Positions 2,023 through 53,602 of a DNA stretch of 64,000 nt are shown here, in pieces (within the stretch, counting starts at the first letter, position 1; every line of letters begins with the position of its first letter). The DNA lies in contig CAYVDJ010000100.1 of the NCBI GenBank assembly GCA_964450755.1, positions 1,665-65,664 of the forward strand, read 5' to 3'. Made by a program: the position numbers and the translations under genes. The stretch is from an uncultured Campylobacterales bacterium. GTDB taxonomy: Bacteria > Campylobacterota > Campylobacteria > Campylobacterales > JAADDG01. The notes under the pieces are model-generated. The model did no database searches, was not told the DNA's origin, and was given only the letters and a program-made list of their open reading frames with translations.

Positions 2023-2133
2023 TCTCTCACAGCCGGTTGAGATGAGTTTTATCATAGAGACGATAGTTTTTTTACTCGCTGTTACGGGTGTGGGAATATT
2101 TTTTGTAAATTATAAAACGAAGAAGGAGAACAG

Positions 2134-3489
2134 GTGATTACGCTAAAAGAGGCTCTATCGCTTCCAAAAGAGGAGATAGCCGAGTTTAGAAAAGATTTGG
2201 CAAAAAAGATAAAAGAGAAAAAAGAGTTGGGCGGTTATGTCGAACAGCTCACGGGTGAGGAGATCAATGTTTACGGAGAAGGGATTCCCATTGCGATAAA
2301 AGACAATATTCAGGTAAAAGGGTGGAATGTAACCTGCTCTTCCAAAATCCTTCAAGGATACACAGCTCCTTACAATGCGACCGTGATCGATAATATGCTC
2401 TCTTATGGGCTTTCTCCTTTTGGCAGATGCAATATGGATGAGTTTGCGATGGGAAGTTCCACCGAAACCAGCTGTTACGGAAATACTTTGAATCCTCATG
2501 ATCCAAACAGAGTTCCCGGAGGAAGCAGCGGAGGAAGTGCGGCGGTAGTCGGCGGAGGTATAGCGATAGCCGCTCTTGGAAGCGATACTGGAGGAAGTAT
2601 CAGACAACCTGCGGCATTTTGCGGATGTGTAGGGATGAAACCGACATACTCCACTGTCAGCAGATACGGTTTGACCGCTTTTTCAAGCTCTTTGGATCAG
2701 ATAGGACCTTTGAGTCAAAATGTAGAAGATGCGGCTATCTTGTTTGATATCATAAAAGGGCATGAGCCAAAAGACTCTACAAGCGCAGATATCAAATATG
2801 AAAAAGTATCCGATAAACTGAACAGAGACAGAAAATTGACAATAGCCGTTATAGAAAACTATCTTGAGGAGTCTTCGCCTGTTATACAAAAAAGCTGTAA
2901 TGAAGCGATCAAAGCTCTAAAAGAGGCAGGACATAAGATAGTCTATAAAAATCTGATAGATTCAAAATATGACATAGCGACATATTATATCGTGGCAACT
3001 GCGGAAGCAAGTGCAAATCTAAGCCGTTTTGACGGTGTCAGATACGGCAACAGAGTGGAGAGTCCAAATCTGAAAGAGATGTATAGAAAAACAAGAGGGG
3101 AGGGGTTTGGCGAAGAGGTCAAAAGAAGAATCCTTCTTGGAACTTTTGTTTTGAGCAGCGGTTATTATGATGCCTACTACATAAAAGCGCAAAAAGCAAG
3201 ACATCTTATAAAAGAGCAGTATGAAAATATCTTTAAAGAGGCCGATCTCATCTTCACTCCCGTAACTCCGAGTGTGGCATTTGAGTTTGGAAGCAAAAAA
3301 GATCCTCTTGAGATGTATCTTAGCGATATCTATACAATAGCGGTAAATTTGGCGGGTCTTCCTGCAATCTCACTTCCGATAGGCAAAAATGACGACGGAC
3401 TCCCGATAGGAGGACAGTTTATAGCAAAAGCTTTTGATGAGCAGACACTTTTTGACGGCGCTCTTGGTTTGGAGAGTATATTGTCTTGA
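2134..3489 (+). CDS. gatA: Glu-tRNA(Gln)/Asp-tRNA(Asn) amidotransferase subunit A
   Basis: 451 aa with amidase signature [11 protein letters not shown]...[15 protein letters not shown] start preceded by AAGGAG at 2123-2128. Confidence 0.93.
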
Positions 3490-20222: not shown

Positions 20223-20297
20223 TGGCTCCGGATGCAGGATTCGAACCTGCGACCAAGTGGTTAACAGCCACCTACTCTACCGCTGAGCTAATCCGGA
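20223..20297 (-). tRNA. tRNA-Asn (GTT), CCA encoded
   Basis: Folded by hand. Acceptor TCCGGAT/ATCCGGA, anticodon loop CTGTTAA, T-loop GGTTCGAATCC. Confidence 0.95.
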
Positions 20298-24421: not shown

Positions 24422-25933
24422 TTGAAAAAGCTTCATTGTGCCACTTTGGAGGCGATAGAAGCTAAAATCGTAGATGTTGAGGCGGCGTTTGTCAGAGGTC
24501 TGCCCGGATTTTCCATCGTAGGTCTTGCCCAGACATCCATTCAGGAATCAAAAGAGAGGATAAAATCGGCTCTTAGTTCCATCGGATACTCATTTGCACC
24601 TTTAAAAATAACCATCAACCTCTCTCCTTCCGATCTGAAAAAAGAGGGAAGCCATTTTGATCTGCCTATCTCCCTTTTGATAGCTCTCCAGCAGGAAGAT
24701 GATATAAATTTTGATGAATTTTTTGTTTTTGGAGAGTTGGGACTTGACGGAAAAGTAAAAGACACCTCTTCTTTGTTCGCTCTTATCCTCTCTCTGGCAA
24801 AAAACAGAGAGATAAAAAAGGTGCTTGTTCCAAAAGAGAGTATAGAGAAGATATCGAAAATCATCGGTATAGAGGTTTATGCGGTGGATACTCTTGAGGA
24901 GGCGATAGCGTTTTTTACCGATCCCTCTTTGCAAAAAAAAGTTCAGACAAAAGATTTTGATTTTGACTATATAAAAGATCAGGATAAAAGATACTATTTT
25001 CTTGATGAATTTCCTCTTGATTTCAAAGATGTAAAAGGTCAGGAGATAGCAAAAAGAGCCTCTTTGATAGCAGCAGCCGGAATGCACAACATACTTTTGG
25101 AAGGAAGTCCGGGATGTGGCAAAAGTATGTGTGCCAAAAGGCTTAGATATATCCTCCCTCCACTCTCTTTGGAAGAGATTTTGGAAAATGCGAAACTCTC
25201 CTCCATCGATCAAAAAGAGATAAGTTTCAAACCGATAAGAAACTTCAGATCTCCTCATCACAGCTCTTCAAGAGCAAGTGTTTTCGGAGGCGGAGCAAGA
25301 AGCGCAAAGATAGGAGAGGTGGCTTTGGCAAATAACGGCATACTCTTTTTTGACGAATTTCCACATTTTCCAAAAGCGCTTTTGGAGAGTTTGAGAGAGC
25401 CTTTGGAAGATCACAAAGTTCTCATCTCAAGAGTCAATTCAAAAGTGGAGTATCAGACAAAATTTCTTTTTATAGCGGCGATGAATCCCTGCCCCTGCGG
25501 CAATCTTCTAAGCTCCTCAAAAGAGTGCAGATGCAGTGAACTTGAGATCAAAAGATACAAAAACAGACTCTCTTCACCTCTTCTTGACAGGATAGATATC
25601 TTTGTGCAGATGGAGGAGTTAAAAGAGGATGACAAAGCGACAATCTCTTCCAAAGAGATGTTTGAGAGGGTTAAAAAAGCCTTCTTGATGCAAAAAAGAA
25701 GAGAGCAAAAAGAGTTTAACGGCAAACTGAGCGACGAAGAGATAGTAAAACAGTGCAAAATCTCAAATGAAAGCGAAAAGATCCTCTTACAGGCGGTTAA
25801 AAGATTTGCTTTAAGCAGACGGGGAATCAATAAAGTTTTAAAAGTATCAAGAACAATAGCTGATCTTGATGAAAGAGAAGCTATAGAGAAAAAAGATATC
25901 TTGGAGGCTTTAAGTTACAGGATGAGGGAGTAA
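24422..25933 (+). CDS. comM: YifB/ComM-family Mg-chelatase-like AAA+ ATPase
   Basis: 503 aa with Walker A EGSPGCGKSM, Walker B ILFFDEF, and a Cys cluster NPCPCG...CRC. Confidence 0.9.
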   Translation: MKKLHCATLEAIEAKIVDVEAAFVRGLPGFSIVGLAQTSIQESKERIKSALSSIGYSFAPLKITINLSPSDLKKEGSHFDLPISLLIALQQEDDINFDEFFVFGELGLDGKVKDTSSLFALILSLAKNREIKKVLVPKESIEKISKIIGIEVYAVDTLEEAIAFFTDPSLQKKVQTKDFDFDYIKDQDKRYYFLDEFPLDFKDVKGQEIAKRASLIAAAGMHNILLEGSPGCGKSMCAKRLRYILPPLSLEEILENAKLSSIDQKEISFKPIRNFRSPHHSSSRASVFGGGARSAKIGEVALANNGILFFDEFPHFPKALLESLREPLEDHKVLISRVNSKVEYQTKFLFIAAMNPCPCGNLLSSSKECRCSELEIKRYKNRLSSPLLDRIDIFVQMEELKEDDKATISSKEMFERVKKAFLMQKRREQKEFNGKLSDEEIVKQCKISNESEKILLQAVKRFALSRRGINKVLKVSRTIADLDEREAIEKKDILEALSYRMRE

Positions 25934-25938
25934 ATGAG
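25920..25938 (+). repeat. Direct repeat, left copy (GGATGAGGGAGTAAATGAG) spanning the comM stop codon
   Basis: Read directly. 18/19 identical to 27686-27704, with an exact 14-nt core AGGGAGTAAATGAG. Confidence 0.85.
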
Positions 25939-26036
25939 AAAGTATGATTGAAATTAAGAAATAATTTGATTTTTGTTTGATATTTATATCGTTGTCTTAA
26001 AAATAGAAAAAATCTCTTTTTTATCTACAAATATTT

Positions 26037-27254
26037 TCAATCTTTTATTGTATTTTGAATACTTTTATCAATTAGATTTGTCATATTTTTACTGACACCG
26101 GTTTCTTTTGCAAAAATTTTCCATCTATTAACCGTATCTTTTATTTTATCGATTATAACTTTGTAGTTTTTTATAAGATATTTTTTTGCCAACTCTTCAA
26201 GATGTTTGATAGTCGGATTTTTACCTTCACCAAGATAAAGAGTGCTGTGTTCACCTCCCGGTCCGTAAGAGAAAGTCAAATCATAAACCGGTGATAATCT
26301 CCATTCACCTTTTTCATTCATCAAAAATGAAAAGTTTTTTGCATGGTCATCTCTGTTATGAGCAAAAAGATTGAAACAGGCAAGTTTGAACATTTTTTCC
26401 TGCTCTTTAAAACTTTTAGTCAGATGCAAAGTAAGTTTTAACAAGTCGTCATAATCCAAAATCGGATATCTAAAATCGCTATGAATGAGTCCTGCAACGG
26501 AGTGCATATGAACTCTTTTATTTTTTATCCTGTCAAACCTCTGTGTGCCGAAATATAGAGTTTTTTTGCCTTTAAACAGTGTGAAATTCGGTGTTTTTAA
26601 TCCTGCTGATTTTGCCATTTGGTTATAAGTATATTCAATGGAAGCTATATCATCACTGTCATATCTTGAAGCAAATTTTATAATCCAGTGAGAAAATCCA
26701 TCATCCAAAGATTCTTTTGCATCAACAATACTTTTTAAATCATCACTGACTTGTACTAAAATTTTGGGTCTTGCTCCTGCCGATGAACCACCTAACATAA
26801 AAAGTTCATCTATTAACTCTTCACTACTGCCTTTTAAAATTTCTTTGGAACCGTTTGCCAAATCATCTAAAATAATATCTTCTACAATAGTTTTATATTC
26901 TTTTGTTGGTTCATAGCTCAAAGCTCCCATACCGTTTTTACCGACAAGTGCCAATCTGTCAAGCGGTGATACATCTTTTAGAGCAATTCCTCTTTTTAAA
27001 AATTCCCTGTCTGTCAAAAGTCTGCCCCACCCGTCAGGTAAACTATCTGCAAATACACCCCAAAGACCATCGAATGTATCATCATCACAACGAAAAACTT
27101 CGGATTTTAATGGTAATTTGTAAGGTGATATTTCTATACCTGTTTTTAAAAATTTTTTATCGTATTCAAAATAAATTTTATTATTTTTGATGGCAAGGGT
27201 ACCGAGTTTTTGAGGTTTTTTTGTATAAAAACAGACATTTAATTTAGTTGTCAT
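26037..27254 (-). CDS. hipA: HipA-family Ser/Thr kinase toxin (type II TA)
   Basis: 405 aa. N-terminal HipA coupling domain, SSAGARPK, and catalytic loop HNRDDHAKNFSFL. Confidence 0.9.
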   Translation of the reverse strand: MTTKLNVCFYTKKPQKLGTLAIKNNKIYFEYDKKFLKTGIEISPYKLPLKSEVFRCDDDTFDGLWGVFADSLPDGWGRLLTDREFLKRGIALKDVSPLDRLALVGKNGMGALSYEPTKEYKTIVEDIILDDLANGSKEILKGSSEELIDELFMLGGSSAGARPKILVQVSDDLKSIVDAKESLDDGFSHWIIKFASRYDSDDIASIEYTYNQMAKSAGLKTPNFTLFKGKKTLYFGTQRFDRIKNKRVHMHSVAGLIHSDFRYPILDYDDLLKLTLHLTKSFKEQEKMFKLACFNLFAHNRDDHAKNFSFLMNEKGEWRLSPVYDLTFSYGPGGEHSTLYLGEGKNPTIKHLEELAKKYLIKNYKVIIDKIKDTVNRWKIFAKETGVSKNMTNLIDKSIQNTIKD

Positions 27255-27525
27255 TTATAACCTCGTCTATACTTTTAAAGTTGTACACATCTTTGTTGCA
27301 TATCTTTTCAAAATCTCCCGAACATTCCAAAATAAAGGCGATTTTCAGTAGTGATTCAAGTGATATTTGTCCGCTTTGTTCAAATCTTTTGACAGAACCT
27401 AAGCTCACATTTGATTTTAGAGCTAGATTTTGTTGTGTGAGTTTTAAAGATTTTCTTCTGTTTTTGAACTTCAGTTTTAGCTCTTGCATGAGCTCATTTG
27501 GAGTTTTTGGAAGAAAAGATAACAT
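27244..27525 (-). CDS. hipB: HipB-like XRE-family HTH antitoxin
   Basis: 93 aa with HTH LTQQNLALKSNVSLGSVKRFEQSG. Overlaps hipA by 11 nt. Confidence 0.8.
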   Translation of the reverse strand: MLSFLPKTPNELMQELKLKFKNRRKSLKLTQQNLALKSNVSLGSVKRFEQSGQISLESLLKIAFILECSGDFEKICNKDVYNFKSIDEVINDN

Positions 27526-27566
27526 ATTGGCTAAAACTCCTCTTTTTTAGTAATTATAGCCAATAT
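27524..27566. promoter_or_regulatory. Perfect 10-bp inverted repeat ATATTGGCTA-N23-TAGCCAATAT (candidate HipB operator)
   Basis: One arm (27524-27533) covers the hipB start codon. The other (27557-27566) covers the -10/spacer edge of the hipBA promoter. Confidence 0.4.
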
Positions 27567-27581
27567 ATTATCCCTTGTCAA
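27553..27581 (-). promoter_or_regulatory. Consensus sigma70-type promoter of hipBA
   Basis: Minus strand reads TTGACA (27576-27581), 17-nt spacer, TATAAT (27553-27558). This is followed by AGAGGAG and the hipB ATG at 27525. Confidence 0.6.
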
Positions 27582-27685
27582 TTTTTTATAGTTTGATTTC
27601 TTCCTTGTCAATACTTTTTTATCAGATTCTTTATTATGTGCTATATAGGTTTTTAGAGATACCCTTATATGTTATACTAGTAGTG

Positions 27686-27704
27686 GGATAAGGGAGTAAA
27701 TGAG
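27686..27704 (+). repeat. Direct repeat, right copy (GGATAAGGGAGTAAATGAG)
   Basis: Read directly. It is 1,766 bp downstream of the left copy and 76 nt upstream of the nnr start. Confidence 0.85.
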
Positions 27705-27779
27705 TTTGGAGTGTAAATTTCTCATTTAGGATTTTTAAAAAAATTTTGCTATTATCTCAAATAAAAACAGGGTGAGAAG

Positions 27780-29174
27780 ATGAAAAGAGTATTCAAAGAG
27801 GTATCTACACTAGATAGAAAATGTTACGAAAAGTTTGATCTGAGTGAAGATCTGTTGATGGAGCATGCGGCAGAGGCTATAAAGAGGGTTGTAGAGAGGT
27901 TTGACAAAGATAAAAAGGTTTTGATAGTTTCAGGTCCCGGTAACAACGGAGCTGATGGGATAACTCTGGCAAGACTGCTTCAGAAAGATTACGAAGTAAA
28001 ACTTTTACTCCCTTACGGGGCAAAATCAAAAATGGCAAAACTTCAACTCCAAAGAGCCAAAAAAGTGGAAGTACAGGAGGTGGATAAGGTAGAAGATGCC
28101 GATATCGTAGTGGATGCTGTTTTTGGATCGGGGATGAACAGAGAGCTTGATGAAAAATGCGTAAAAATCATAGAAGAGTTAAATTCTCTTGATGCCTGTA
28201 AGATAGCCTGTGATATCCCAACCGGTATCGATATAAACGGCAATATCTCAAAAAATGCTTTCAATGCCGATATCACCGTTACAATGGGAGCTTTGAAAGA
28301 GGCTCTTTTTAGCGATTTTGCAAAAGACAGAGTAGGAGAGATAGAGATAGCCGATCTGGGAGTGAGTTCAAAGCTTTATGAAGATGAAAGCGATGTTTTT
28401 TTGCTCGAAAAATCGGATCTGAAACTTCCTCTCAGAGAGAAAAAAAGTTCCCACAAAGGAGATTTTGGTCATCTTGGCGTGGTATGCGGCAGAAAGCACG
28501 GAGCGGGGATCATAGCCTCAAAGGCGGCTTTTGTTTTTGGTGCGGGTTTGGTTACGATCATCAGTAACGACTCTTTGGAAGTGCCTTATGAGATCATGCA
28601 CAGCAGCACTTTGCCAAAAAGATGTAACGGAGTCTGTATCGGAATGGGACTTGGATATCAGTATGATGATGAACTGTTGCATGATTTTGTGATAAATCAT
28701 CCTCATCCGGTTGTTATAGATGCTGATATATTTTATCACGAATTTATAGTTGAGATTTTACAAAAAAAGAGAAATATCATCCTGACTCCTCATCCAAAGG
28801 AGTTCTCTTCACTTTTGAAACTGACTTGTATTGCAGATTTGGGTGTTGATGAGATACAAAAAAGGCGTTTTGAACTGGTTAGAGAGTTTTGTTCCAAATT
28901 CAAAGATGTTGTACTGCTTTTGAAAGGTTCAAATACGCTTATCGGGCAGAATGAAAAAATTTTTATCAATCCCCACGGTACAAATGCCCTCAGCAAAGGG
29001 GGAAGCGGAGATGTTTTAAGCGGGATGATAGGCTCTTTGAGTGTTCAGGGATACTCCACTCTTCAAGCGGCGATAAACGGCTCTTTGGCTCATGCTTTGA
29101 GTGCCAAAAGTTACGCTGAAAACAACTACTCTTTGACTCCTTTTGATATCATAGAGGGTTTGAAATGTCTTTAA
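27780..29174 (+). CDS. nnr: Bifunctional NAD(P)H-hydrate repair enzyme (epimerase + ADP-dependent dehydratase)
   Basis: 464 aa. YjeF-N motif SGPGNNGADG and C-terminal carbohydrate-kinase motif GGSGDVLSG. Confidence 0.9.
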   Translation: MKRVFKEVSTLDRKCYEKFDLSEDLLMEHAAEAIKRVVERFDKDKKVLIVSGPGNNGADGITLARLLQKDYEVKLLLPYGAKSKMAKLQLQRAKKVEVQEVDKVEDADIVVDAVFGSGMNRELDEKCVKIIEELNSLDACKIACDIPTGIDINGNISKNAFNADITVTMGALKEALFSDFAKDRVGEIEIADLGVSSKLYEDESDVFLLEKSDLKLPLREKKSSHKGDFGHLGVVCGRKHGAGIIASKAAFVFGAGLVTIISNDSLEVPYEIMHSSTLPKRCNGVCIGMGLGYQYDDELLHDFVINHPHPVVIDADIFYHEFIVEILQKKRNIILTPHPKEFSSLLKLTCIADLGVDEIQKRRFELVREFCSKFKDVVLLLKGSNTLIGQNEKIFINPHGTNALSKGGSGDVLSGMIGSLSVQGYSTLQAAINGSLAHALSAKSYAENNYSLTPFDIIEGLKCL

Positions 29175-29743
29175 AAAAGGTAGCGGTTTTATTCAGCGGT
29201 GAGGGAACAAATCTGGAAAATCTCATCAAAAAACTGCATCTGAAAAGTTTTGATGATCTAAAAGTTGAGATTGTGGCTGCCGTTACAAACAACCCCGAAG
29301 CAAACGGTATCAAAAGGGCTGAAAAATACGGTATAAAAACCGTTATCTTGGATCATAAAAAATATAAAAACAGAGAGAGTTTTGATAAAGCTCTTGTTGA
29401 AAAGATTTTTTCACTCGATGTTGATCTTTGCATTTTAGCCGGTTTTATGCGTATTCTCACTCCAATATTTACAAAAAATATAAAAGCAGTCAATATCCAT
29501 CCCTCCCTTTTGCCGCTTTTTAGAGGAGCGGGAGCGATAGAGAAAAGCTTTGAGTCTGATATGAAAGTAGCCGGTGTTACGGTTCATCTTGTCAGTGAAG
29601 AGCTTGACGGGGGAGAGATCATCGATCAGGAGTGTTTTAAAAAAGATGAAAAGATGAGTCTGGAAGAGTTTGAGATGAAAATACACTCCATAGAGTATGA
29701 GCTTTTTCCAAAAGCCGTTTTAAAAGTTTTAAGAGATTTTTAG
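29165..29743 (+). CDS. purN: Phosphoribosylglycinamide formyltransferase
   Basis: 192 aa with VLFSGEGTNL, LAGFMRIL, NIHPSLLP and TVHLV motifs. Confidence 0.9.
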   Translation: MSLKKVAVLFSGEGTNLENLIKKLHLKSFDDLKVEIVAAVTNNPEANGIKRAEKYGIKTVILDHKKYKNRESFDKALVEKIFSLDVDLCILAGFMRILTPIFTKNIKAVNIHPSLLPLFRGAGAIEKSFESDMKVAGVTVHLVSEELDGGEIIDQECFKKDEKMSLEEFEMKIHSIEYELFPKAVLKVLRDF

Positions 29744-29745
29744 TT

Positions 29746-29777
29746 GTTTGGTGTGTAAATAAAGTTACACACCAAAC
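29746..29777. terminator. Perfect 13-bp hairpin between convergent purN and the MCP gene
   Basis: GTTTGGTGTGTAA-ataaag-TTACACACCAAAC. There is no flanking U/A tract on either side, so any terminator function is inferred from position only. Confidence 0.5.
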
Positions 29778-29787
29778 AGGAGTAAAT

Positions 29788-31455
29788 CTATCTTTTAAGT
29801 ATTTCAAATCCTGTGCTTAATGTCTGAAGTTTTTCACTCTCTATACTAATGTTTTCCATAATATCCTTAATATTTTTACTGTTTTTTTCTATAACTTTAC
29901 CTTTTTGATCAGTTAAGTCTATTTTTGAACTGATATTTTGGAGATATGTGGATTGAGAGTTAAATTCATCTTCAAAACGGTTGATGGTTATAATTGTATC
30001 ATTTAGTAATTTTTCCGTATCAGAAAAATTTTTATTGATATTTTTACCGCTGTTTAAAAAAGTTTCAAAACTCTCTCTTGTCGCATTTGCATTTTTGGTA
30101 ACAGTCTGGATATTATTTTGCATTGTTTCTACAATTTGAGAGATATTGTTTGCATTGGTTTGGGATATTTCTGCAAGTTCTCTGACTTTATCGGCAACGA
30201 CTGCAAAACTTCTGCCGTGTTTACCGGCTCTTGCTGCTTCAATGGCGGCATTCAAAGCGATAAGATTTGTCTCTTCTGCTATACTCCCTATGATATCTAT
30301 CGTTTGGTCTATATTTTTGGAGTGTTTTTTCAACTCATCTATAGCCTCTATTGTTTCATCCAAAGCTTTATAGGTACTGTTTGCCTCTTTATTGTTTTTT
30401 TCCAGAATTGTTCTTGTTTTTTTGATGTCTTTTATCGTATTGTTTGATTCTTCTCCCATTTTTGAGAGTACTTCTTTTAATGTACGGTTTTTCTCCCATA
30501 CTTTGGCAGTGAATTCTTTTATCTGTTTTAACTGTTTGCTTTGTTCATTTACTCTTTGATAATTTTCACTCATTTTGGATATGCCGTAAGAGCTTTTATC
30601 AACTACACTGTTTGCCTGTTCTACAACATGGTCTATAACCGGTTTTATGGAATGAGACATGTCATTTAAAGAATAAAAAAGTTTGTCTATCTCGTTTTTG
30701 TTATTTTTATTGACCCTCTCTTCTTTCATGATATCATCTATCTTAAAATTACCATTTTCTATTCTTTTCATTGCTTTTGTAAGTTTTGTCAGTCTTGCAG
30801 CCACCTCTTTATGAAAAAGGAGTAAGACTACAGCCATAACAAAGATAATGTTAAAAGACCAGCCGGTTATTATTGTTAAAAAAGATTTTTGTAAATCCGT
30901 TAAAAAATTTTTCAAATCTATCTTAACATTTTCTATTGCGATTATTTCTCCCTCTTTCCATGAAGGATGGCACATTTTGCATTCTTTTTCGGCTGTTATA
31001 GGGCGGGATACCATAAAATAACTTTTATTATTAAATTCTATATTTGTAGAATGCTCTTTTATTTTTCTATTTTTTTTGAAATATTCTATTTCGTTTATCT
31101 CAAACGGCAGTGCTTTGTTTTTTGGGTTGGTAGGGTTTATGGAAGCCTCTTTAAAAAATACTTCTCCTTTGGAAATATCAGTGAATTTATCGAAAATTTC
31201 ATTTTGAATCTGCTGGGGAATTTCACTGCTCTGACCGGAAAAAAATTTTTCATTTCTACTTTCCAACAATACATCTGCAAAATTTAATATGGATTTTGCT
31301 TTTGAATAAAGTTTCTCCTCCAACGCCGTTTTGTTTTGAGTATATAGATAGTAATAGGAAACAGATGTTATAGATACTATAACTCCCAAAAGAATTATAG
31401 CAAACATGAGTCCTAGTTTTATACTTCTCAGGCGATACATTATAAATCCAAACAT
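29788..31455 (-). CDS. Methyl-accepting chemotaxis protein with periplasmic CxxCH (haem-c) sensor domain
   Basis: 555 aa with two TM segments (about aa 14-37 and 184-206). The periplasmic domain ends ...[17 protein letters not shown]-like linker, then MCP signalling core [18 protein letters not shown]. Confidence 0.85.
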
Positions 31456-31612
31456 TTATAGTCCTTAAAATTAGGTTTTTTAATTTTCCTCCACGGTGTT
31501 AAATCGGATAATTTACTAAATAAATTTAATAATCAGTATTTTTCTATAATCCATAAGATAAAAAAAAGAAAAAATCTGATATAAAGTTTGAGTACTTATA
31601 AAAGGAGATATT

Positions 31613-32483: not shown

Positions 32484-32561
32484 CGGGGTGTAGCGCAGCC
32501 TGGTTAGCGCACCTGGTTTGGGACCAGGGGGTCGAAGGTTCGAATCCTTTCACCCCGACCA
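32484..32561 (+). tRNA. tRNA-Pro (TGG), CCA encoded
   Basis: Folded by hand. Acceptor CGGGGTG/CACCCCG, anticodon loop TTTGGGA. Confidence 0.93.
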
Positions 32562-32590
32562 TTAAAAATTGAATTTGGTTTTGAAAAGAC

Positions 32591-32668
32591 GGTGGGTGTA
32601 GCTCAGTTGGTTAGAGCATCAGGTTGTGGCTCTGAGGGTCGTGGGTTCGATTCCCATCACTCACCCCA
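32591..32668 (+). tRNA. tRNA-His (GTG) with G-1, CCA encoded
   Basis: Extra 5' G pairs with C73. Anticodon loop TTGTGGC. Confidence 0.93.
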
Positions 32669-32698
32669 TTGATATGAGCCGTTGAGTTATTTTCCTAT

Positions 32699-32771
32699 GG
32701 ATCATTAGCTCAGTTGGTAGAGCAACGGATTCTTAATCCGTGGGCCGTAGGTTCAAACCCTACATGATCCA
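32699..32771 (+). tRNA. tRNA-Lys (CTT), CCA not encoded
   Basis: Acceptor GGATCAT/ATGATCC, anticodon loop TTCTTAA. The 3' flank is CAG. Confidence 0.92.
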
Positions 32772-32782
32772 CAGTTTAAGAT

Positions 32783-32856
32783 GCGCCCGTAGCTCAATTG
32801 GATAGAGCAACGGACTTCGGATCCGTAGGTTATAGGTTCGACTCCTATCGGGCGTG
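32783..32856 (+). tRNA. tRNA-Arg (TCG), CCA not encoded
   Basis: Acceptor GCGCCCG/CGGGCGT (G1:U72), anticodon loop CTTCGGA. Confidence 0.92.
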
Positions 32857-32883
32857 CTTGTTAACGCCTTTGATTTTGATTAT

Positions 32884-32960
32884 GCGCTCGTAGCTCAGCT
32901 GGATAGAGCAACGGCCTTCTAAGCCGTAGGTCTCAGGTTCGAATCCTGACGGGCGTACCA
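32884..32960 (+). tRNA. tRNA-Arg (TCT), CCA encoded
   Basis: Acceptor GCGCTCG/CGGGCGT, anticodon loop CTTCTAA. Confidence 0.92.
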
Positions 32961-32968
32961 TTTTTTTA

Positions 32969-33053
32969 GCGGATGTGGTGAAATTGGTAGACACGCCAGA
33001 CTTAGGATCTGGTGCCGCAAGGTGTGGAGGTTCGAGTCCTCTCATCCGCACCA
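32969..33053 (+). tRNA. tRNA-Leu (TAG), long variable arm, CCA encoded
   Basis: Acceptor GCGGATG/CATCCGC, anticodon loop CTTAGGA, 13-nt variable arm. Confidence 0.93.
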
Positions 33054-33072: not shown

Positions 33073-34533
33073 TTACAGTCTGACTACCCTTTTTTCATCC
33101 TCTTTGATAAATTCCAAAAGCTCTTTGCAAAAATCAGAATAGCATACGATATTTTTTCTGCCTATATGATCACTGTGTTTGTATTGTAGTCTTAAATAGT
33201 CCTGATTTTTATGTTTCAAAAAGAGTATTCCGCTGAAATAAAATTTTTTACTGTTTAAAAAATCCACTATTTCGTCTATACACTCGATCATTTCCATATT
33301 TATATCGGCATAAATCATATCGCTGTGTTTTGCTCTTGCATGATCCAACAAAAGAGAGAATTTTTTCTCAAACTGATCTCCTGTCCTGTCGATAACCAAA
33401 ACCGCTGTATTTGAGAGAGGATCATTAAAATAGGCGAATTTTGAATATTTGTCTCTTTTTGGAGAGCATACAAGCTGTTTATATGAGATGTTTTTACATT
33501 TTTTGTAAATAGATTTTATTTTCTCCTCATAGATTTTAGGAATATGGATTCTTTTTTCTATAGGTTTGAAAATCCTGTATCCTATCAAAACAGAACCCCT
33601 TTGTGATACAAAAGAGAGAGGATTGTTTTTTAGTCTTGTATCTTCATTTACTCTTCCCATAACCAAAGCACTTTCGCAAAATCCGTGAGAGAGATTGCTT
33701 TTTTGGCTGTAAATATGAACCATAATCGCTTCTCCGAAAATCGCATCAAATTCCAATTTTTCAGCCCATTTTATCAAAGCATCAAACATTTTGTTCATAA
33801 TGCCTCTTCCCTTGTACAGAGGATCAACTACAACTATACCGACTTCGGCAATATTTGAATCATAAGATTTTACAAGTGCAAAATGACCTACAATTTTGCT
33901 GTTTGTCTGAGCGACGATGGAGAAAAATTTTTTGCCTTCGTTTTGAGCTATTTTTTTGGGATAATAGAAAAGATCTTTTAGATATGTATATCCGTAATTT
34001 CGGTAAATCAGTCTTGATATACTCTCTTCGTCCCCCTTTTTATACTCTCTTATTACTATATTTTCATCACCTGTTGTTATATCCTTTTTTTGATGCTCTT
34101 TATTCTCCTCTTTTAACTTTTCTCCTGTGTGAGGATGAGATAAAAATTTTATAATAGAAAATTTTTTTCCCTCTTTTCCGAGATTGAAATAGTCAAACTG
34201 GTCTGTCAGTTTATAGATTCTGTTAAAACCTTTGTCCTCTTTTAGATTGATAGGAACGGCTCTTGGTTTTATATGGGATATCGGTTCTCCCCAGTCTCTG
34301 ACATCCACTCTGATACCGTTGTCAAAAGAGGTGATGTCAATCTCTATCAGACCTTCTTGCATTTTATATGCGTGTATGATGGAGTTTTCTACAAGTTCTT
34401 TTACCGCCTCTATAATCTTTTTTCGCTCTTTTTTTGAAAAACCGATTTTTGAGGAGATATCCTCAATAGCCATATTTACGATAGAAAAATATTCTCTTTG
34501 GCTTGGTATTTTGATCATAACGCTCTTTTTCAT
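33073..34533 (-). CDS. Fusion protein: RsbW/SpoIIAB-like GHKL (HATPase) domain, GNAT acetyltransferase, and an uncharacterised C-terminal domain
   Basis: 486 aa. N-box-like AVKELVENSIIHAY and IRVDVRDWGEPI (about aa 1-135). GNAT core IVGHFALV...VVVDPLYKGRGIMNKMF (about aa 160-300). The last 190 aa or so are unassigned. Confidence 0.7.
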   Translation of the reverse strand: MKKSVMIKIPSQREYFSIVNMAIEDISSKIGFSKKERKKIIEAVKELVENSIIHAYKMQEGLIEIDITSFDNGIRVDVRDWGEPISHIKPRAVPINLKEDKGFNRIYKLTDQFDYFNLGKEGKKFSIIKFLSHPHTGEKLKEENKEHQKKDITTGDENIVIREYKKGDEESISRLIYRNYGYTYLKDLFYYPKKIAQNEGKKFFSIVAQTNSKIVGHFALVKSYDSNIAEVGIVVVDPLYKGRGIMNKMFDALIKWAEKLEFDAIFGEAIMVHIYSQKSNLSHGFCESALVMGRVNEDTRLKNNPLSFVSQRGSVLIGYRIFKPIEKRIHIPKIYEEKIKSIYKKCKNISYKQLVCSPKRDKYSKFAYFNDPLSNTAVLVIDRTGDQFEKKFSLLLDHARAKHSDMIYADINMEMIECIDEIVDFLNSKKFYFSGILFLKHKNQDYLRLQYKHSDHIGRKNIVCYSDFCKELLEFIKEDEKRVVRL

Positions 34534-40304: not shown

Positions 40305-40856
40305 GTGGGGAAAATTAAAATAGTTTTTTTATTGTCTCTTATTCCGTTTGTTTTACAAGCGGGATGGGACCCTTACAGAGCTAAAAAAACAGATTTTATT
40401 GGTGTTAAAGATTATAAAATTAATCGAACAATAAGACTTTTTTTAAAAAAACAGCCCAGGTTAAAACTTTTCTTCCAAAAAGCGTACGGATATGTAGTTT
40501 TTCCTATGATAGGAAAAGGTGGAATGGGATTTGGTGTTGCTTATGGAGAAGGTAAGGTTTACAGAAAAAACTCCCTTATAGGAAAAAGTACTTTAACTCA
40601 GGTTTCAGTTGGTTTTCAGCTTGGAGGACAAGGTTATAGTGAAATAATATTTTTTAAAGATAAAAAAGCATTGGACAGACTTAAAAAAGGCGATTTTACT
40701 TTAAGCGCACAAGCTTCGGCAGTTGTGGTAAAAACGGGAATCTCGGTAGATATTGATTACAGTGACGGAGTTGCTGTTTTTACTCTGCCTAAAGTCGGTC
40801 TTATGTATGAAGCAAGTGTAGGCGGACAGAAGTTTAGTTTTACTCCATATTATTAG
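40305..40856 (+). CDS. Exported SYLF (Ysc84/DUF500)-domain protein
   Basis: 183 aa with a signal-like N-terminus and a VGFQLGGQGYSEIIFF...ASAVVVKTG pattern. GTG start. Confidence 0.55.
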   Translation: MGKIKIVFLLSLIPFVLQAGWDPYRAKKTDFIGVKDYKINRTIRLFLKKQPRLKLFFQKAYGYVVFPMIGKGGMGFGVAYGEGKVYRKNSLIGKSTLTQVSVGFQLGGQGYSEIIFFKDKKALDRLKKGDFTLSAQASAVVVKTGISVDIDYSDGVAVFTLPKVGLMYEASVGGQKFSFTPYY

Positions 40857-41991: not shown

Positions 41992-43301
41992 GCAAAAAGG
42001 TTCATTTTATAGGGATAGGCGGAATAGGGCTTTCTGCACTTGCAAGATATCTGAAAAAGAACGGATATGTCATCAGCGGTTCGGATATAAAAGAGACACC
42101 CATAACAAGAAGTCTCAGAAAAGAGGGGATAAAAGTCAGTGTTCCCCATTCTAAAGAGGCGATAGAAGATCAAGATATCGTTATCTATTCTGCCGTTATC
42201 AAAGATGATAATGTCGAAATGAGAGAGGCAAGGAAAAAAGGTGCATTGGTGCTTTCGAGAAAAGATGCTCTTCCTTGGATTTTGGCAAACAAGAAGGTTT
42301 TTGCCGTTGGGGGCGCCCACGGAAAAAGCACTACAAGCGCAATGCTCGCTTCCATCATAGACGGATCGGTTATCATCGGTGCCGAAAGCAAACAGTTTGG
42401 ATCAAATATGCACTATAAAAAGAGCGATTATATCGTCTTTGAGGCAGATGAGAGTGATGAGAGTTTTTTAAATTCAAATCCTTACATAGCCATCATAACA
42501 AATGCAGAGCCAGAACACATGGAGCATTATGGTTATGATTATGAAAAATTTTACAATGCTTATGAAGAGTTTATAAGAAAAGCGAAAATCAGAGTTTTTA
42601 ACGCCGAAGATGATTTTCTATCCACACTTGATGATATAGAAGCGATAAGACTCTATCCGAGCAGAGATATAAAAGAGATCAAAACAGTGATCATCGACAA
42701 AGAGCCTTATACCTCGTTCATTTTAAAAGATTTGGGAACTTTTGAGGTATGGGGGATAGGAGAACATATAGCTATCGATGCTTCATTGAGTATCCTTGCG
42801 GCTCTTAATGAAAAAAATCTTGAAGATGTAAAAAGAGAGATTAGAAATTACAGAGGTATCAAAAAAAGATTTGATATTTTAGCCCAGACAGATGATTATA
42901 TACTCATAGATGATTACGGACACCATCCGACAGAGATAAAAGCCACGATCAGATCGGCAAGTGAATACGCAAAACTGATGAATATCAAAAAGATTGTAGC
43001 TATCTGGCAGCCACACAAATATTCAAGAACCGTTGATAATCTTGACAAGTTTGTAGAGTGTTTTGAAGGGGTGGACGAGCTTATCATACTTCCTGTCTGG
43101 AATGTCGGAGAAAAAGAGATTGAGATCGATTTTGAGAGATATTTTAAAAAATATAATCCCAAATTTGCCGATAAAATAAGAAGAGACAGTGATAAAATAA
43201 AGCTTTTAAAGAGTCAGACAAGCATAGAGGAAGTAAGAGACGGTTTGATTATCGGATTTGGTGCCGGAGATATCACATATCAGTTAAGGGGTGCCTTGTA
43301 A
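41988..43301 (+). CDS. murC: UDP-N-acetylmuramate--L-alanine ligase
   Basis: 437 aa with HFIGIGGIGLSALA, GAHGKSTT and DDYGHHPTE motifs. GTG start overlaps the upstream stop. Confidence 0.93.
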   Translation: MSKKVHFIGIGGIGLSALARYLKKNGYVISGSDIKETPITRSLRKEGIKVSVPHSKEAIEDQDIVIYSAVIKDDNVEMREARKKGALVLSRKDALPWILANKKVFAVGGAHGKSTTSAMLASIIDGSVIIGAESKQFGSNMHYKKSDYIVFEADESDESFLNSNPYIAIITNAEPEHMEHYGYDYEKFYNAYEEFIRKAKIRVFNAEDDFLSTLDDIEAIRLYPSRDIKEIKTVIIDKEPYTSFILKDLGTFEVWGIGEHIAIDASLSILAALNEKNLEDVKREIRNYRGIKKRFDILAQTDDYILIDDYGHHPTEIKATIRSASEYAKLMNIKKIVAIWQPHKYSRTVDNLDKFVECFEGVDELIILPVWNVGEKEIEIDFERYFKKYNPKFADKIRRDSDKIKLLKSQTSIEEVRDGLIIGFGAGDITYQLRGAL

Positions 43302-45886: not shown

Positions 45887-46348
45887 TTAAAAAGACTTGC
45901 TAAACACAGCCGGATTTCCTACATAAACCCCCTCTTTGTCTATATCTTTTGTTACAACCGCCCCTGCGCCTATGATGACATTATCGCAGATTTTAACAGG
46001 CAGGATTGTGGCGTTTGAGCCTATGTGGACATTGTTTCCTATAACTGTTTTTTGCCACTTTGTCGGATCTTTTGAGGGAGAGCCGGATGAGAATTTGTCA
46101 TTTATAAACATTACTCCGTGTCCTATGAAGCAGTTTTTACCGATACTGACCAGTTCACAGATAAAAGAGTGAGATTGTATGCGGCTGTTTTCTCCTATCG
46201 TTACGCCTCTTTGTATTTCACAAAAAGGTCCTACAAAAACATTGTTTTTCAGAGTGCATTCATAGAGATTTACCGGCTCTACGATCACAACATCTTTTCC
46301 CGTTTTTACATCTCTTATTGATACCTGATATCTCATCTTAAAACTCAT
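45887..46348 (-). CDS. Hexapeptide-repeat sugar N-acetyltransferase (WbpD/WlbB-like)
   Basis: 153 aa. Left-handed beta-helix repeats ([27 protein letters not shown]...). Last gene of the operon. Confidence 0.75.
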
Positions 46349-47426
46349 TTATTGCCTTTGCCACTTTCTCTATCTCCTCATTTTCCAAATGTTCTCCAAT
46401 AGGGATTGACAGAAGTTCTTTGTCACTTTTACAGGCGAAAAAGTCGGAAGTATCCTGTGTCAGATAGCTGTAGGCTTGAAGTTTCGGCAAAGCGGTGGGA
46501 TAGTGCATACCTGTTTGAATATCATTTTTGTTTAGATGCTCTATCAGTTTCTCTCTTTGTTTTACCCTCAAAACAAAAAGATGCCATACCGATTCTCTGT
46601 TTTTGTGAACAAAGGGGAGTGTAATTTTTTGGTTTTTTATATTTTGAAGATAAAAATTTGCTATCTTTTGTCTTTTTTTAATCCATCTTTTTAAATATTT
46701 TAGTTTTACATTCAAAACGGCTGCCTGTAAACCGTCAAGTCTGCTGTTTCTTCCCTCTATCTCATGAGAATATTTCTTTTTGCTTCCGTGGTTTGCATAA
46801 AGTCTTGATCTTTTTGCCAACTCTTCGTCATTTGTTACAACAGCTCCTGCGTCTCCGTAGGCTCCTAGATTTTTGCCCGGATAAAAGCTGAAAGTTGCCA
46901 TATCACCAAAATTTCCGACTTTCTTGCCTTTATAGACGGCTCCGTGAGCCTGAGCGCAGTCCTCTATCACTTTTAGGTTATATGCTTTTGCTATCTTGTT
47001 TATCTCGTCCATATCTGCCGGTTGACCGTAAAGATGAACGGCTATAATGGCTTTTGTCTTTTTGGTTATGAGTTTTTCTATGCTTTTTGGATCGATTAGG
47101 TAGTCATCTTTGACATCGGCAAATATGACTTTGTGAGAGTTTGTTGTTACACTCTCGCTTGTTGCTATGTAGCTGTTTGCAGGAACGATAACCTCGCTTT
47201 TTGGATCAAGTCTCAAAGAGTGCAGAGCTATCTCCAAAGCGTCCGTTCCGTTTCCGACTCCGATACAGTGTTTTACCTCATGAAAAGATGCAAAACTGTT
47301 TTCAAACTCTTTTAAAAATCTCCCCTCGATAAAAGCGTTCTCTTTTATCACGGTTTTTATCGCCTGATCAATCTCTTCTTGAATTGATTGATACTGTTTG
47401 TACAGATCCAAAAATTTTATACTCAT
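46338..47426 (-). CDS. DegT/DnrJ/EryC1/StrS-family sugar aminotransferase (WbpE/GnnB-like)
   Basis: 362 aa with [28 protein letters not shown] (PLP-Lys) and HGS motifs. Confidence 0.88.
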
Positions 47427-48412
47427 ATTCTCTCTTTTTTTACTCTTTGAAGTATTTGTGCTGATTTTAGGATGATATCTTCAGAGCTTAAAGTTTTTCT
47501 GCTATAAAGGATATAGTCTCTAAAAGCCTCTATTGCATTGTTTAAAGCCATCGAATCATCAAGTTTCGGTATGAAAATTTCATTCTCGGGATAGGAAATA
47601 TTGTTGTTATAAAGTTCGTTGTTTTTAAATTTTTCCTCAAGATAACTGCCGGTGGAGTATATCTTTATCTTGTTTTGGATTGTATCGTCATAAACTGCCG
47701 TTTTGTTTTCTCCCACTATTATCATCGATCTTACTTTGGATGGATTTATCCATGAGACATTGATATTTATATGGATATTTGAGATTGTATCTATCAGTAT
47801 ATTGGCTATTGCTTCTTTATTATTTGAATAATTTTTATATTTTTGGGTTGTTGTGCAACATCTTTTGATATTTAAATCTATCAAGTGGTCGATGATATAA
47901 AGATCATGAATAGCAAGATCATCTATCACTCCGTCATCATCCCTAAAAAGTCCGAAATTGAGTCTTTGTGAGTTTATATACAAAATTTTTCCAAAACTCT
48001 CTATCTCTCTTTTTAGATATTTGACGGCATTTGAGTATAAAAAGACAAAATCCACAAACAGTTTTTTATCCACTTTTTTGGCAAGTTCTATCAGCTCTTT
48101 TGTTTGCAAAAGAGTCTGAGCAAACGGTTTTTCCACAAAGATATGTTTTTTTGCTTTTAAAGATTTTTTTATCAATTCATAGTGTGTTTTTAGAGGTGTG
48201 GCTATAAAAACCGCCTCTATTTCGCTCTCCAAAAAGCTTTCTATAGTATCAAAAATTTTAAAATCATACTCCTCAGCGGCGCTTTTGATACTCTTTTGGT
48301 TTAGATCAAAGATCGAAAAAAGCTCCAGATTATCGGTGGCTTTAATCGTTCTTGCTATATTTCTGCCCCAATAACCGTATCCTATCAATCCTACTTTTAA
48401 ATGTTTCATCAT
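47423..48412 (-). CDS. Gfo/Idh/MocA-family sugar oxidoreductase (WbpB/GnnA-like)
   Basis: 329 aa with the N-terminal Rossmann motif [15 protein letters not shown] and EKPF. Confidence 0.85.
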
Positions 48413-48417
48413 TTTCC

Positions 48418-49488
48418 TTAAAGAAGCCTCTCTATCTCTTTTGTTATTTTTTCAAATTCGCACTTATCTTGGCAAAAAAATCTTTTGTTGTCAAATCTTT
48501 TGCCAATCATCTCTTTTGCAAACAAAAGACCTTTATTTGCATCATCAGTCCATTTTATCAGATTGTTATCGATGAGATATTTATCGTGAAAGAGCAGAAA
48601 TGACCTTGTCGATATCGTCGGGATTCCCATATAGGCGGCTTCAAGATTCATCGTTCCTCCTCCCCCTATCAAAAGATCGATAAAGGGATAAAACTCTTCT
48701 GGCATTATCTTCTCTTCCAAAATAGTTATATTTTTATCCTTTCCAAAAAGATGATAGAGGTGATCGCTTTCATATCTTGGCATGATGACGATATTTGCAT
48801 CTATGTTTTTGCTTATCTTTTTTGTCAGATCATACAGGATATCAAGTTTCTCTTTTACATAATTTGCTTTAAACTCCTCTTCTCTTACCAAAACGGTATA
48901 TCTGTTTTTGTCCAGATCAAATCTGTCTCTGAAATCTTTTGTTTTGTCTTTTTTTATCTCTTTCATCCACAGACAAATATCGATGAAACCGTACTCTTTG
49001 ATCTTTTTGGGATCGACTCCCGCCTTTACATAAATCTCCTGAGGTATGACAAACGGTCTGAAAATCAGAGTGGAAAGAGCAAAAGTGAGCCGTGAAACAA
49101 AAGTGATGTCGTCATAATTGAAGATATAATTTCTAAGAGGAGTATCGGCGAAATTGACTGAAGCTATTCCAAGAGCCGATGCTGTTTGTATCCCCTCCAC
49201 ACTTGCGCCGCTTAGATGGATTTTGGGGTATCCCTCCTTTTCAAAAAGCTCTGTAAAACCTTTTTGTCTCTCAATCCTTGATAAAAATTTGTCTCTTTTT
49301 GATATACCACCGTATTTTCCGATTATTTTGTGTTTTATGCCGTTTAAAGTCAGTATTTTTGAAGGCTCCTTATAATCCTCACTGTATCTTGTTGTGATGA
49401 GAGTTTTGTATCCCTTTTTGTGCCATAACGGAACCATTTTTGAGAAAAATACCGCATATTTTGGATCTGTGATATCTATCCAGATCAT
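48418..49488 (-). CDS. DUF354-family protein (GT-B/epimerase-like fold, uncharacterised)
   Basis: 356 aa. [15 protein letters not shown]...GYKTLITTR...IIGKYGG...[15 protein letters not shown] matches my recollection of the DUF354 consensus. Confidence 0.6.
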
Positions 49489-50435
49489 AAAGACTCCTCT
49501 TTTAGATATTTTTCAAAGTATTTTATCGTTTTTTCCAATCCCTCTTTTATATTGACTTTCGGTTTCCATTTTAATCTCTCTTTTGCCAAAGATATATCGG
49601 GTTTTCTCATCACCGGATCATCCTGCGGAAGGGGCAGATAGACAATCTTGCTTTTGGAGTTTGTCATCTCTATAACCATATCCGCCAACTCTTTTACGGT
49701 AAATTCCTGCGGATTGCCGATATTAACGGGACCTGTAAAATCATCTTTTGTATTCATCATTTTTACAAGAGCATCTATCAAATCCGCCTGATAGCAGAAA
49801 CTTCTTGTTTGAGAGCCGTCTCCGTAGATCGTGATATCTTCATCTTTTAGAGCCTGAACGATAAAATTGCTTACGACTCTGCCGTCTTTTGGGTGCATAT
49901 TTTCTCCGTAGGTATTGAAAATCCTTACGACTTTTATCTTTAGATTCAGTTGTCTTTGATAGTCGAAAAAGAGAGTTTCTGCGCATCTTTTGCCCTCGTC
50001 ATAACATGCCCTTATGCCGATTGGATTGACCGAGCCGTTATAGTGTTCTGGTTGCGGATGTATCTTCGGATCTCCGTAAACTTCGCTTGTACTTGCCTGT
50101 AAAATTTTGATATTGAGTCTTTTTGCAAGTCCGAGCATATTGATAGCGCCCATAACGGATGTTTTGGTGGTTTGAATCGGATCTTTTTGGTAATGAATCG
50201 GACTTGCCGGACAGGCGAGATTGTAAACCTCGTCAACTTCCGCATAATAGGGAAAACTGATATCGTGTCTTATCAGTTCAAAATATCTGTTATCCATCAG
50301 TTTTTCTATATTTCTTTTTGAACCGGTTATGAAATTGTCCAGACAAAGCACCTCATTGCCTTCATCCAAAAGCCTTTTGCAAAGATGGCTTCCGATAAAT
50401 CCTGCTCCGCCTGTTATCAGAATCCTCTTTTTCAT
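49485..50435 (-). CDS. UDP-glucuronate decarboxylase-type SDR (UXS-like)
   Basis: The ATG at 50435 sits in an ATGA overlap with the upstream stop; the track's GTG at 50456 is less likely. [30 protein letters not shown] and YDEGKR (YxxxK). Confidence 0.85.
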
Positions 50436-51520
50436 ATCTTCTCCATTTCTTTGCACGAGTGTTTTAATCTTTTCATGACGGCTTCTCTTGAGTAGCTTTG
50501 CAAAAACGAATCTTTGATATTTAGATCTATTCTGTTTTCAAGCAAAGAGATGATGATATTTAAAAGTTCTTTTTTGTTGTTATAGTAGATCGCTATCTCG
50601 TCAAACTCTTTGCTTTTGCAGGAGAATTTCGGAACGATGACTTTTCTCTTTAGAAAAATGGCATCGCCGTAAGTTGCCGATTCCATCGTTTTGCCGTAGC
50701 CAAAACTTTTTCTAAGAGGAGTCAAAAATATATCGCACTCGTTTGATAAAGAGATAAACTCTTCATCATTCAAAATTTTTGGGATATATTTTACTTTTAC
50801 AATTCTCTCAAACATTTTTGCAACGCCTTTGCATATCCTGCTCTCACAGTTTCCCACAAGCACAACGGTTATCTTTTCTCTTTGATCCTCATTCAAAGAG
50901 TGCAAAATATCGTAAAAGAGATCATAATCCTTTCTTCTTGGATCGATACTGATAAGACCTATCTCAATCCCGCTTTTGTCAATTCTTGGTTTTACGCTTG
51001 ATTTGATATCGCTAAAATAGCAGGGAATAACGGCTGTTGAAAAATTTTTTGCATTTTTACAGCTTTTTTTGAAATTGTTTTCTATCTGAATACTGTCAAA
51101 GGTGAGGCATTTTACATTTTTCAAAGCAAGGTGTCTTAAAAAATATCCCGTACTAAAACCTTTTATCTGATATCTGTCTATATTTCTTATATGCAAAATG
51201 ATCTTCTTTTTATAAAAAAGAGTAAAAAGATAGAAACCAAAAGTTATAGCTATGTTGCTAAACCAGTCTCTCCATTCGGGTCCTGTTTGTATAAAAACAA
51301 GATCATATTTTCGTGCGCGAAAAAGAAGTTTCCAGTAGATCGTGTTTTGGTTTTTTATATTTTCTTTACGGTTGCTTGGAACCTGCTCGACAAGTTCTCT
51401 GTTTTTGTAGATGATCGTATCTACCTCATCAAACTCTTTTTTAAAAAAAGAGTAGATATGAGAGAGGATTCTGTAATGAAAACTAAACTCGACTATCAGA
51501 GCTTTTTTAAATGGTTTCAT
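50432..51520 (-). CDS. Uncharacterised GT-B-like glycosyltransferase
   Basis: 362 aa. The C-terminal half (VLVGN...CDIFLTPL...[17 protein letters not shown]) resembles GT1/GT4 C-domains. The assignment is weak. Confidence 0.45.
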
Positions 51521-53593: not shown

Positions 53594-53602
53594 TCACTCT
53601 CC

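Follow-up and report, generated by a model that had tools for sequence, protein, structure and literature searches.

How does a stand-alone toxin-antitoxin operon come to lie between two housekeeping genes with no recombination gene beside it? The question is raised by a 64,000-nucleotide stretch of DNA from an uncultured Campylobacterales bacterium (contig CAYVDJ010000100.1; the whole stretch is referred to as the window), in which an islet (1,766 bp with one copy of the repeat included) separates comM from nnr. The only genes that it holds are hipA and hipB, both on the minus strand, and it is bracketed by a 19-bp direct repeat of the 3' end of comM. A first-pass annotation, made from the letters alone, had described this arrangement and proposed two origins for it: the stripped remnant of a larger island, or a minimal cassette mobilized in trans. 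With a probability of roughly 60%, we consider the islet to be an immobile remnant, similar to a cis-mobilizable element (CIME), left after the integration of a circular element at the 3' end of comM and the later loss of its integrase. The features of the locus are given below, with L numbers denoting the contigs and loci compared.

24422-25933, plus strand: comM, the target gene (503 aa; Pfam Mg_chelatase, ChlI and Mg_chelatase_C).
25886-25938, plus strand: 53-nt comM 3' segment (last 15 codons, stop codon and 5 nt), duplicated at the right junction of a variant haplotype.
25920-25938, plus strand: left 19-bp repeat (attL-like), GGATGAGGGAGTAAATGAG, which includes the comM stop TAA (25931-25933).
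25939-26036: 98-nt spacer from the left repeat to the hipA stop (hipA 3' untranslated region).
25944-27242: segment deleted in L087, a contig of the variant haplotype (nearly all of hipA and the 3' spacer, with 1 nt of microhomology at the junction).
26037-27254, minus strand: hipA toxin kinase gene (405 aa), apparently intact (HipA_C and Couple_hipA domains; PDB alignment).
27244-27525, minus strand: hipB antitoxin/repressor gene (93 aa, HTH_3), overlapping the hipA start by 11 nt.
27518-27572: 24-nt inverted repeat (83% complementary), a candidate HipB operator, spanning the -10 box and the hipB start codon.
27553-27581, minus strand: predicted hipBA promoter (TTGACA, 17 nt, TATAAT; 12/12 with the sigma-70 consensus).
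27588-27685: 98 nt specific to the window haplotype, holding the second unit of a 30-nt tandem duplication and a second TTGACA.
27686-27704, plus strand: right 19-bp repeat (attR-like), GGATAAGGGAGTAAATGAG, the part in common with the 53-nt copy of L120 and L121.
27705-27779, plus strand: 75-nt spacer from the right repeat to nnr, common to both haplotypes.
27780-29174, plus strand: nnr, bifunctional NAD(P)H-hydrate repair enzyme (464 aa; Pfam YjeF_N and Carb_kinase), the normal downstream neighbor of comM.

The left copy of the repeat consists of the last 11 coding nucleotides of comM, the stop codon and 5 nt. The right copy starts 1,766 bp further on and is identical at 18 of the 19 positions. 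The single mismatch, G/A at 27690, is a strain-specific single-nucleotide polymorphism: the sister strain L082 has G at that position, and its right copy is GGATGAGGGAGTAAATGAG, a perfect 19/19 repeat. When up to three mismatches were allowed, these two copies were the sole matches to the 19-mer in the window, with 0 expected from 100 shuffles, and a comparison of one flank against the other gave a repeat score of 16 (null mean 9.1, null maximum 14; 200 shuffles). Within the window, homology between the two sites does not go past the 19 nt, either upstream or downstream. Regarding the prospect that the 19-mer belongs to a dispersed repeat family, which the first-pass annotation had raised as a threat to its reading, no such family was seen: the window holds two copies only, a scan of the JGI metagenomes with GGATRAGGGAGTAAATGAG returned the organism's own contig and 22 unrelated chance matches, and a scan of viral contigs for the repeat gave no match. 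That the right repeat is a genuine copy of the end of comM is supported by a sister haplotype, in which it reaches 53 nt. The repeat, the housekeeping nature of both flanks and the presence of hipB and hipA alone between the copies (both reading frames confirmed by Pfam) were thus correctly described from the start.

We then looked at the junction between comM and nnr in other Campylobacterota, scanning one genome per species. This gave 80 loci, with a best ComM identity of 70%. The gene order tig-clpP-def-comM-nnr-purN is widely conserved among them, and 51 of the 59 loci that have both comM and nnr keep the two genes at most 70 nt apart. The remaining eight hold 0.3 to 3.3 kb of unrelated genes at this point, with no significant flanking repeats. 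Neither hipA nor hipB lies between comM and nnr at any of the 59, which answers the suspicion, also voiced in the annotation, that hipBA could be syntenic across the order. A search with the Nnr protein added three closer relatives: L112 (Nnr 88% identical, comM-nnr gap of 31 nt), L113 (77%, overlap of 4 nt) and L114 (77%, gap of 2 nt). All three present an empty site, with one comM end and nnr straight after it. In all, hipBA is absent from 79 of 79 distant loci and from 3 of 3 closer relatives. The alignment with L112 places the insertion precisely: 85% nucleotide identity extends up to exactly 25933, the last position of the comM stop codon, and resumes at about 27744-27774, just before nnr, where the last ~36 nt of the right-hand spacer are homologous to the 31-nt comM-nnr spacer of L112. 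Besides, the ComM C-terminus (...LSYRMRE) is identical to that of relatives without hipBA. As the annotation had anticipated for related genomes, a single comM end is found where hipBA is missing, although none of these relatives is conspecific. The comparison supports hipBA as a lineage-specific insertion at an otherwise conserved junction.

A second likeness to the comM terminus was observed at 27765-27779, the 15 nt directly before the nnr start. This segment (ACAGGGTGAGAAG) resembles the end of comM (ACAGGATGAGGGAG) and outscores the upstream regions of 60 other genes of the window; the likeness is also present in L112 (3100-3115). It seems to be what is left of an earlier duplication of this terminus, one that would have uncoupled comM from nnr. 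In L113 the two genes still overlap, which places the ribosome-binding site of nnr inside comM.

The same insertion is found in sister strains. Four metagenomic or metagenome-assembled genome contigs, plus a fifth, L089, carry an identical HipA in the same context, and all five hipA-bearing contigs (5/5) are occupied at the same site. The exact Nnr and PurN proteins of the window have no database record, and variant contigs were reached through members of their clusters. These contigs revealed a second haplotype of the same species in two samples, represented by L087 and L120 in one and by L121 in the other. On its left side, L087 shows comM, the left repeat followed by AAAGT, then the first four codons of hipA and an intact hipB. 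It departs from the window at 27587/27588 into an open reading frame (ORF) starting with MSFSDFS..., and the variant haplotype rejoins the window at 27686. On the right side, L120 and L121 show the C-terminus of a membrane ORF, 56 nt, a 53-nt copy of the comM end, the same spacer as in the window, and nnr. The 53-nt copies (L120:331-383 and L121:652-704) each match 25886-25938 at 52 of 53 positions, the mismatch being a different one in each contig, and have sharp borders in two independent contigs. We infer a single strain as the source of L087 and L120, and a single gene as the origin of the N- and C-terminal ORF fragments.

Because the left junction (...ATGAG joined to AAAGT) and the spacer 3' of the right copy are common to both haplotypes, the data point to one ancestral insertion followed by internal rearrangements. 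Regarding the order of the two forms, divergence across nnr-purN is 0.5-0.8% among strains with the 19-nt form, 1.3% between the two strains with the 53-nt form, and 1.3-2.0% between strains of different form. Since the 53-nt-form strains diverge more from each other than the 19-nt-form strains do, this suggests, without amounting to proof, that the long form is the older one and that the 19-mer of the window is its truncated remnant. The islet is polymorphic and decaying within the species. The option of a stripped remnant of a larger island thereby gains ground to the extent that it fits the population data, in which one haplotype is without hipA and has an extra gene by the right repeat.

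That extra gene is a multi-pass membrane ORF beside the 53-nt repeat (L087:5434-5730; L120:2-274; L121:2-595). Its assembled ends gave no homologue in Pfam, PADLOC or protein searches, its partial products are absent from the cluster table, and a viral-contig scan with the sequence at the ends of the variant contigs found no match.

Taking these observations together, we propose that a circular element with a look-alike of the comM terminus underwent a single crossover with the chromosome at the 3' end of comM. Such a crossover would duplicate the terminus on both sides of the insert and keep comM intact. A duplicated gene terminus is what tyrosine integrases classically leave behind when they integrate at the 3' end of a gene, and the enzyme would most likely have been a site-specific integrase of this type, later lost. 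The duplicated segment would originally have been at least 53 nt long, and in the strain of the window a rearrangement between the promoter of hipB and the junction on the right would later have reduced it to its last 19 nt. In the clade of the window, the membrane-protein gene would have been lost along with 34 nt of the right repeat, and the other haplotype would have lost hipA. Addiction to hipBA may have slowed the loss of the islet; one lineage lost hipA yet kept hipB. In the strain of the window, the islet is probably immobile.

Several results weigh against this origin. No recombinase was found inside the islet, where ORF and Pfam analyses gave hipA and hipB only, in agreement with the annotation. 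Nor was any integrase, excisionase or transposase detected by Pfam in 46 ORFs of the window, or beside comM in the relatives. The 46 are all listed ORFs of at least 183 aa except 40305-40856, 33073-34533 and frames overlapping scanned genes; the 486-aa ORF at 33073-34533 has non-recombinase domains on record. They include leuS, gatA, ackA, rubrerythrin, a two-component system, tig, clpP, def and purN, as well as a methyl-accepting chemotaxis protein gene, thiG, a polysaccharide-biosynthesis cluster, nusA and others, and several gave no Pfam hit. Hence, of the scar of site-specific integration (attL/attR) proposed at first, the insertion and the duplicated comM end stand, but the integrase origin is left without an enzyme. 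Exact-pattern scans revealed no extra copies that could represent an attP-like site or a circle junction, and no conspecific empty site was recovered. None of the 79 other Campylobacterota loci duplicates its own comM terminus, and thus no evidence points to a whole family of integrases that target comM. The proposed origin does not account for the 98 nt at 27588-27685, which have no match in the visible parts of the variant haplotype. The interior of the variant island is unassembled between L087 and L121, which makes its gene content and the order of events uncertain. Finally, composition deviates modestly. The GC content at third codon positions of hipA (0.234) is the lowest of 61 genes (mean 0.338, standard deviation [SD] 0.042), and the tetranucleotide distance of the islet is within the top 5% of windows of the same size, but its overall GC is only 1.1 SD under the mean and other native-looking genes match it in AT-richness, as does the chemotaxis gene. 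The GC and k-mer deviation that the annotation expected of foreign DNA is therefore present in mild form.

Regarding the wider lineage, we discarded the end of comM as a general integration hot spot: the inserts found there are unrelated, no locus duplicates its own terminus, and no integrases were seen by eye. Loci without nnr downstream of comM have ordinary genes there, not integrases, as judged by eye, and the literature on comM as an attB site yielded nothing informative. The locus with the highest ComM identity in the species-representative scan is L002 (70%), where hydrogenase-maturation genes take the place of nnr behind comM. It also has a 114-aa ORF at L002:10812-11156 that is PemK/MazF-like by eye, on the basis of its N-terminal sequence only.

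One could argue that the same single crossover of a circular DNA took place with no dedicated integrase, through RecA (a Campbell-type event), using a stretch of about 53 nt of comM carried by a plasmid or an excised fragment. A RecA-dependent crossover can make do with a stretch as long as the duplication, which has 53 nt at 98% identity. The failure to find an integrase anywhere in the data, be it in the window ORFs or in the comM neighborhoods, speaks in the same direction, as do the related HipA proteins on plasmids of Campylobacterota. But this explanation leaves unsaid how a foreign circle came to bear just these last 53 nt of comM, sharply bordered. Such a terminal segment is usually explained by an attP mimic or an earlier imprecise excision. 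Moreover, scans of JGI metagenomes and viral contigs found no plasmid with the 53-nt segment. We regard a RecA-mediated origin as unlikely.

The cassette could instead be a minimal mobile unit that is still active, that is, a true CIME or a trans-mobilized cassette served by a recombinase from another part of the genome. In its favor, L082 has perfect direct repeats (19/19), two cargo arrangements have the same junction core, and the class of element is an accepted one (PMC6323972). Against this, every one of the hipA-bearing contigs is occupied, and neither an empty site nor a circle junction was found. The right repeat of the window has been cut from 53 to 19 nt, the 19-mer is nowhere else in the window or in the JGI metagenomes save the organism's own contig, and hipBA cassettes at other loci have no flanking repeats. 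Present activity thus seems quite improbable to us, and mobilization in trans, the second origin offered by the annotation, is disfavored on the grounds of the shortened right repeat, the repeat-free homologous cassettes and the lack of other 19-mers.

A bolder version of mobility would make the 3' end of comM a landing pad at which an unlinked, trans-acting site-specific recombinase inserts and exchanges tiny cargo cassettes, such as hipBA or the membrane-protein gene, at the 19-bp core. We hold this to be a long shot. If it were true, stand-alone toxin-antitoxin modules would be mobile without any gene of their own for it, which would explain in concrete terms the movement of chromosomal toxin-antitoxin operons.

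Illegitimate or transformation-associated insertion is a further explanation, with the junction duplication as a by-product (for example, a small tandem duplication followed by DNA capture). The duplication would then have been kept since both the end of comM and the translation signals of nnr had to survive. The older, decayed copy of the comM terminus before nnr, present in L112 too, indicates that such duplications happened before. Also in its favor are the overlap in L113, with the nnr ribosome-binding site within comM, and the lack of repeats at other strain-variable genes nearby. This route, however, needs two rare events and not one. A spacer had already parted comM and nnr when hipBA was inserted, so that a duplication was no longer required, and sharp-edged 53-nt repeats around a whole insert are the product expected of a single crossover. 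We therefore give it low odds.

Lastly, the idea that the repeat arose by chance or has a function of its own (as ribosome-binding site or terminator), next to an ancestral hipBA, is effectively refuted: the core does read AGGGAG-TAA-ATG, like a ribosome-binding site with a start codon, and the right copy can pair with CTCATTTA 16 nt downstream, but no match is expected by chance, the sister haplotype has a repeat of 53 nt, the hairpin does not exceed shuffled sequence in stability (z = -0.12), and hipBA is absent from the 79 distant loci and the three closer relatives. The terminator hairpin was rejected on that same stability value, and an Rfam scan of 25500-28000 returned no RNA family.

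Transposition was also rejected. A transposon, insertion sequence or miniature inverted-repeat transposable element leaves a short target duplication (2-14 bp), and the repeat here is of 19-53 nt; there is no transposase, and no terminal inverted repeats are present at 25939... or ...27685.

Turning to the cargo, hipA encodes the domains HipA_C (PF07804, 7.2e-48 over the full profile) and Couple_hipA (PF13657, 2.4e-16). Its motifs ...NRDDHAKNFS... and ...SPVYDL... align with GNEDMHLKNFS and SPAYDL of HipT (8ezr). In established HipA structures, the D-x-H-x-K-N loop and the Asp of the following Y-D-L have catalytic and Mg-binding roles in the kinase core. The relation to the solved HipA and HipT proteins is distant in sequence (E about 1e-8). 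The palindrome at 27518-27572 may be a HipB operator. Given the conserved kinase motifs, the TTGACA-17-TATAAT promoter and the 24-nt palindrome, hipBA looks like a type II toxin-antitoxin operon that is apparently functional and putatively autoregulated. Escherichia coli HipA/HipB and Legionella HipBST are alike in having a HipA_C kinase that bears a coupling domain at its N-terminus and conserves the catalytic motifs, an overlapping upstream antitoxin gene of the helix-turn-helix (HTH) type, and a strong promoter overlapped by a palindrome; the window system is set apart by its HipA, whose sequence is only distantly related to the solved HipA and HipT proteins.

Upstream of hipB, a 30-nt tandem duplication (70% identity) was observed at 27568-27627, each unit of which holds CCTTGTCAAT, that is, a minus-strand TTGACA -35 box. 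The first unit also holds the point, 6 nt upstream of the -35 box, at which the variant haplotype departs.

The nearest homologues of this HipA (69-75% identity) also belong to lone hipBA cassettes between housekeeping genes, at other sites: L115:5340-7364, between gatA and leuS, and L119:5655-7328, after murC. The cassettes inserted in these other Campylobacterota have HipA identities of 69-73%, and the corresponding sites of the window (2022-2134 and 43291-43301) are empty. Between L115 and the window, nucleotide identity is 72% for hipA and only 64% for leuS and gatA. Repeat scores around the cassettes of L115, L117 and L119 were in the null range, with no significant flanking repeats. A HipA homologue of 56% identity is plasmid-borne in Sulfurimonas.

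The genomes with homologous cassettes also hold HigB, ParE, PemK and BrnT modules between housekeeping genes. In two contigs (L117:2371-6851 and L118:781-5261), a pair of large ORFs, 521 and 488 aa long and without a Pfam match, stands between a HipB-like HTH gene and a HipA gene (72% identical to that of the window). The four genes overlap one another in a single operon, and a PemK/ribbon-helix-helix pair adjoins it. This four-gene arrangement, hipB-X-Y-hipA, is unusual.

In order to contextualize the islet, we compared it with known systems. CIMEs are decayed integrative elements that keep attL and attR without integration and transfer genes, a class defined in ICEberg 2.0 (PMC6323972). The islet is alike in being small, cargo-only and recombinase-free, with direct repeats that copy the 3' end of a housekeeping gene and a content that varies within the species. 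It is unlike them in that no cognate integrative and conjugative or mobilizable element, nor an integrase, was found for the 3' end of comM in this lineage (79 loci, and the loci inspected), and in that its right repeat has 19 nt against 53 nt in the sister haplotype, which makes the 'intact att sites' of the class doubtful here. CIMEs are thus the closest category, with membership of the islet not established. In Streptococcus thermophilus, CIMEs lie at the 3' end of fda.

Phage 21 and e14 integrate into the 3' end of a protein gene, icd, and supply a replacement end. In both cases, as at comM, the target gene stays intact through near-identical terminal codons and a duplicated terminus flanks the insert. 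Those elements, however, carry their own integrase by the att site and span tens of kilobases, whereas the islet has 1.8 kb and a toxin-antitoxin operon only. AbaR/Tn6022-type resistance islands are found in comM of Acinetobacter, the same target gene family. They are Tn7-like transposons that interrupt comM internally, with short target duplications and transposition genes, in contrast to the islet, which leaves comM intact, has its 19-53-nt repeat at the very end of the gene, and shows no transposition genes or inverted repeats.

A further comparison is with the chromosomal type II toxin-antitoxin islets, which are patchy in distribution and whose movement and mechanism of integration have been called 'unelucidated' (PMC7167474). 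Like them, the comM islet is a lone operon in the intergenic region of a conserved gene pair, patchy among strains and subject to decay (deletion of hipA), with homologous cassettes at different loci of related genomes. Unlike most of them, which have no insertion signature, it keeps a clear junction duplication. A clean duplication of 19-53 nt, together with natural variants in the same species, makes the mechanism testable. In itself the feature is an ordinary decayed integrative islet, although a clean case of a stand-alone toxin-antitoxin module entering a chromosome.

Other features of the window were recorded along the way. The methyl-accepting chemotaxis gene at 29788-31455 (GC 0.31), within an insert at 29731-31502, is absent from the conspecific L121, where purN is followed almost directly by thiG, and is also absent at this position in L112; it is a second strain-variable insert, 2 kb from hipBA, and no significant direct repeats flank it. 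Six tRNA genes (Pro, His, Lys, Arg, Arg, Leu) are clustered on the plus strand at 32484-33053, and tRNA-Asn stands alone at 20223-20297; no integrase adjoins either. Finally, the minus strand at 46338-56985 holds a polysaccharide or sugar-modification cluster, in which, besides two large ORFs without a Pfam hit (50432-51520 and 54964-56985), we identified a DegT aminotransferase, a GFO/IDH oxidoreductase, a DUF354 protein, three epimerase/dehydratases and a radical SAM enzyme.

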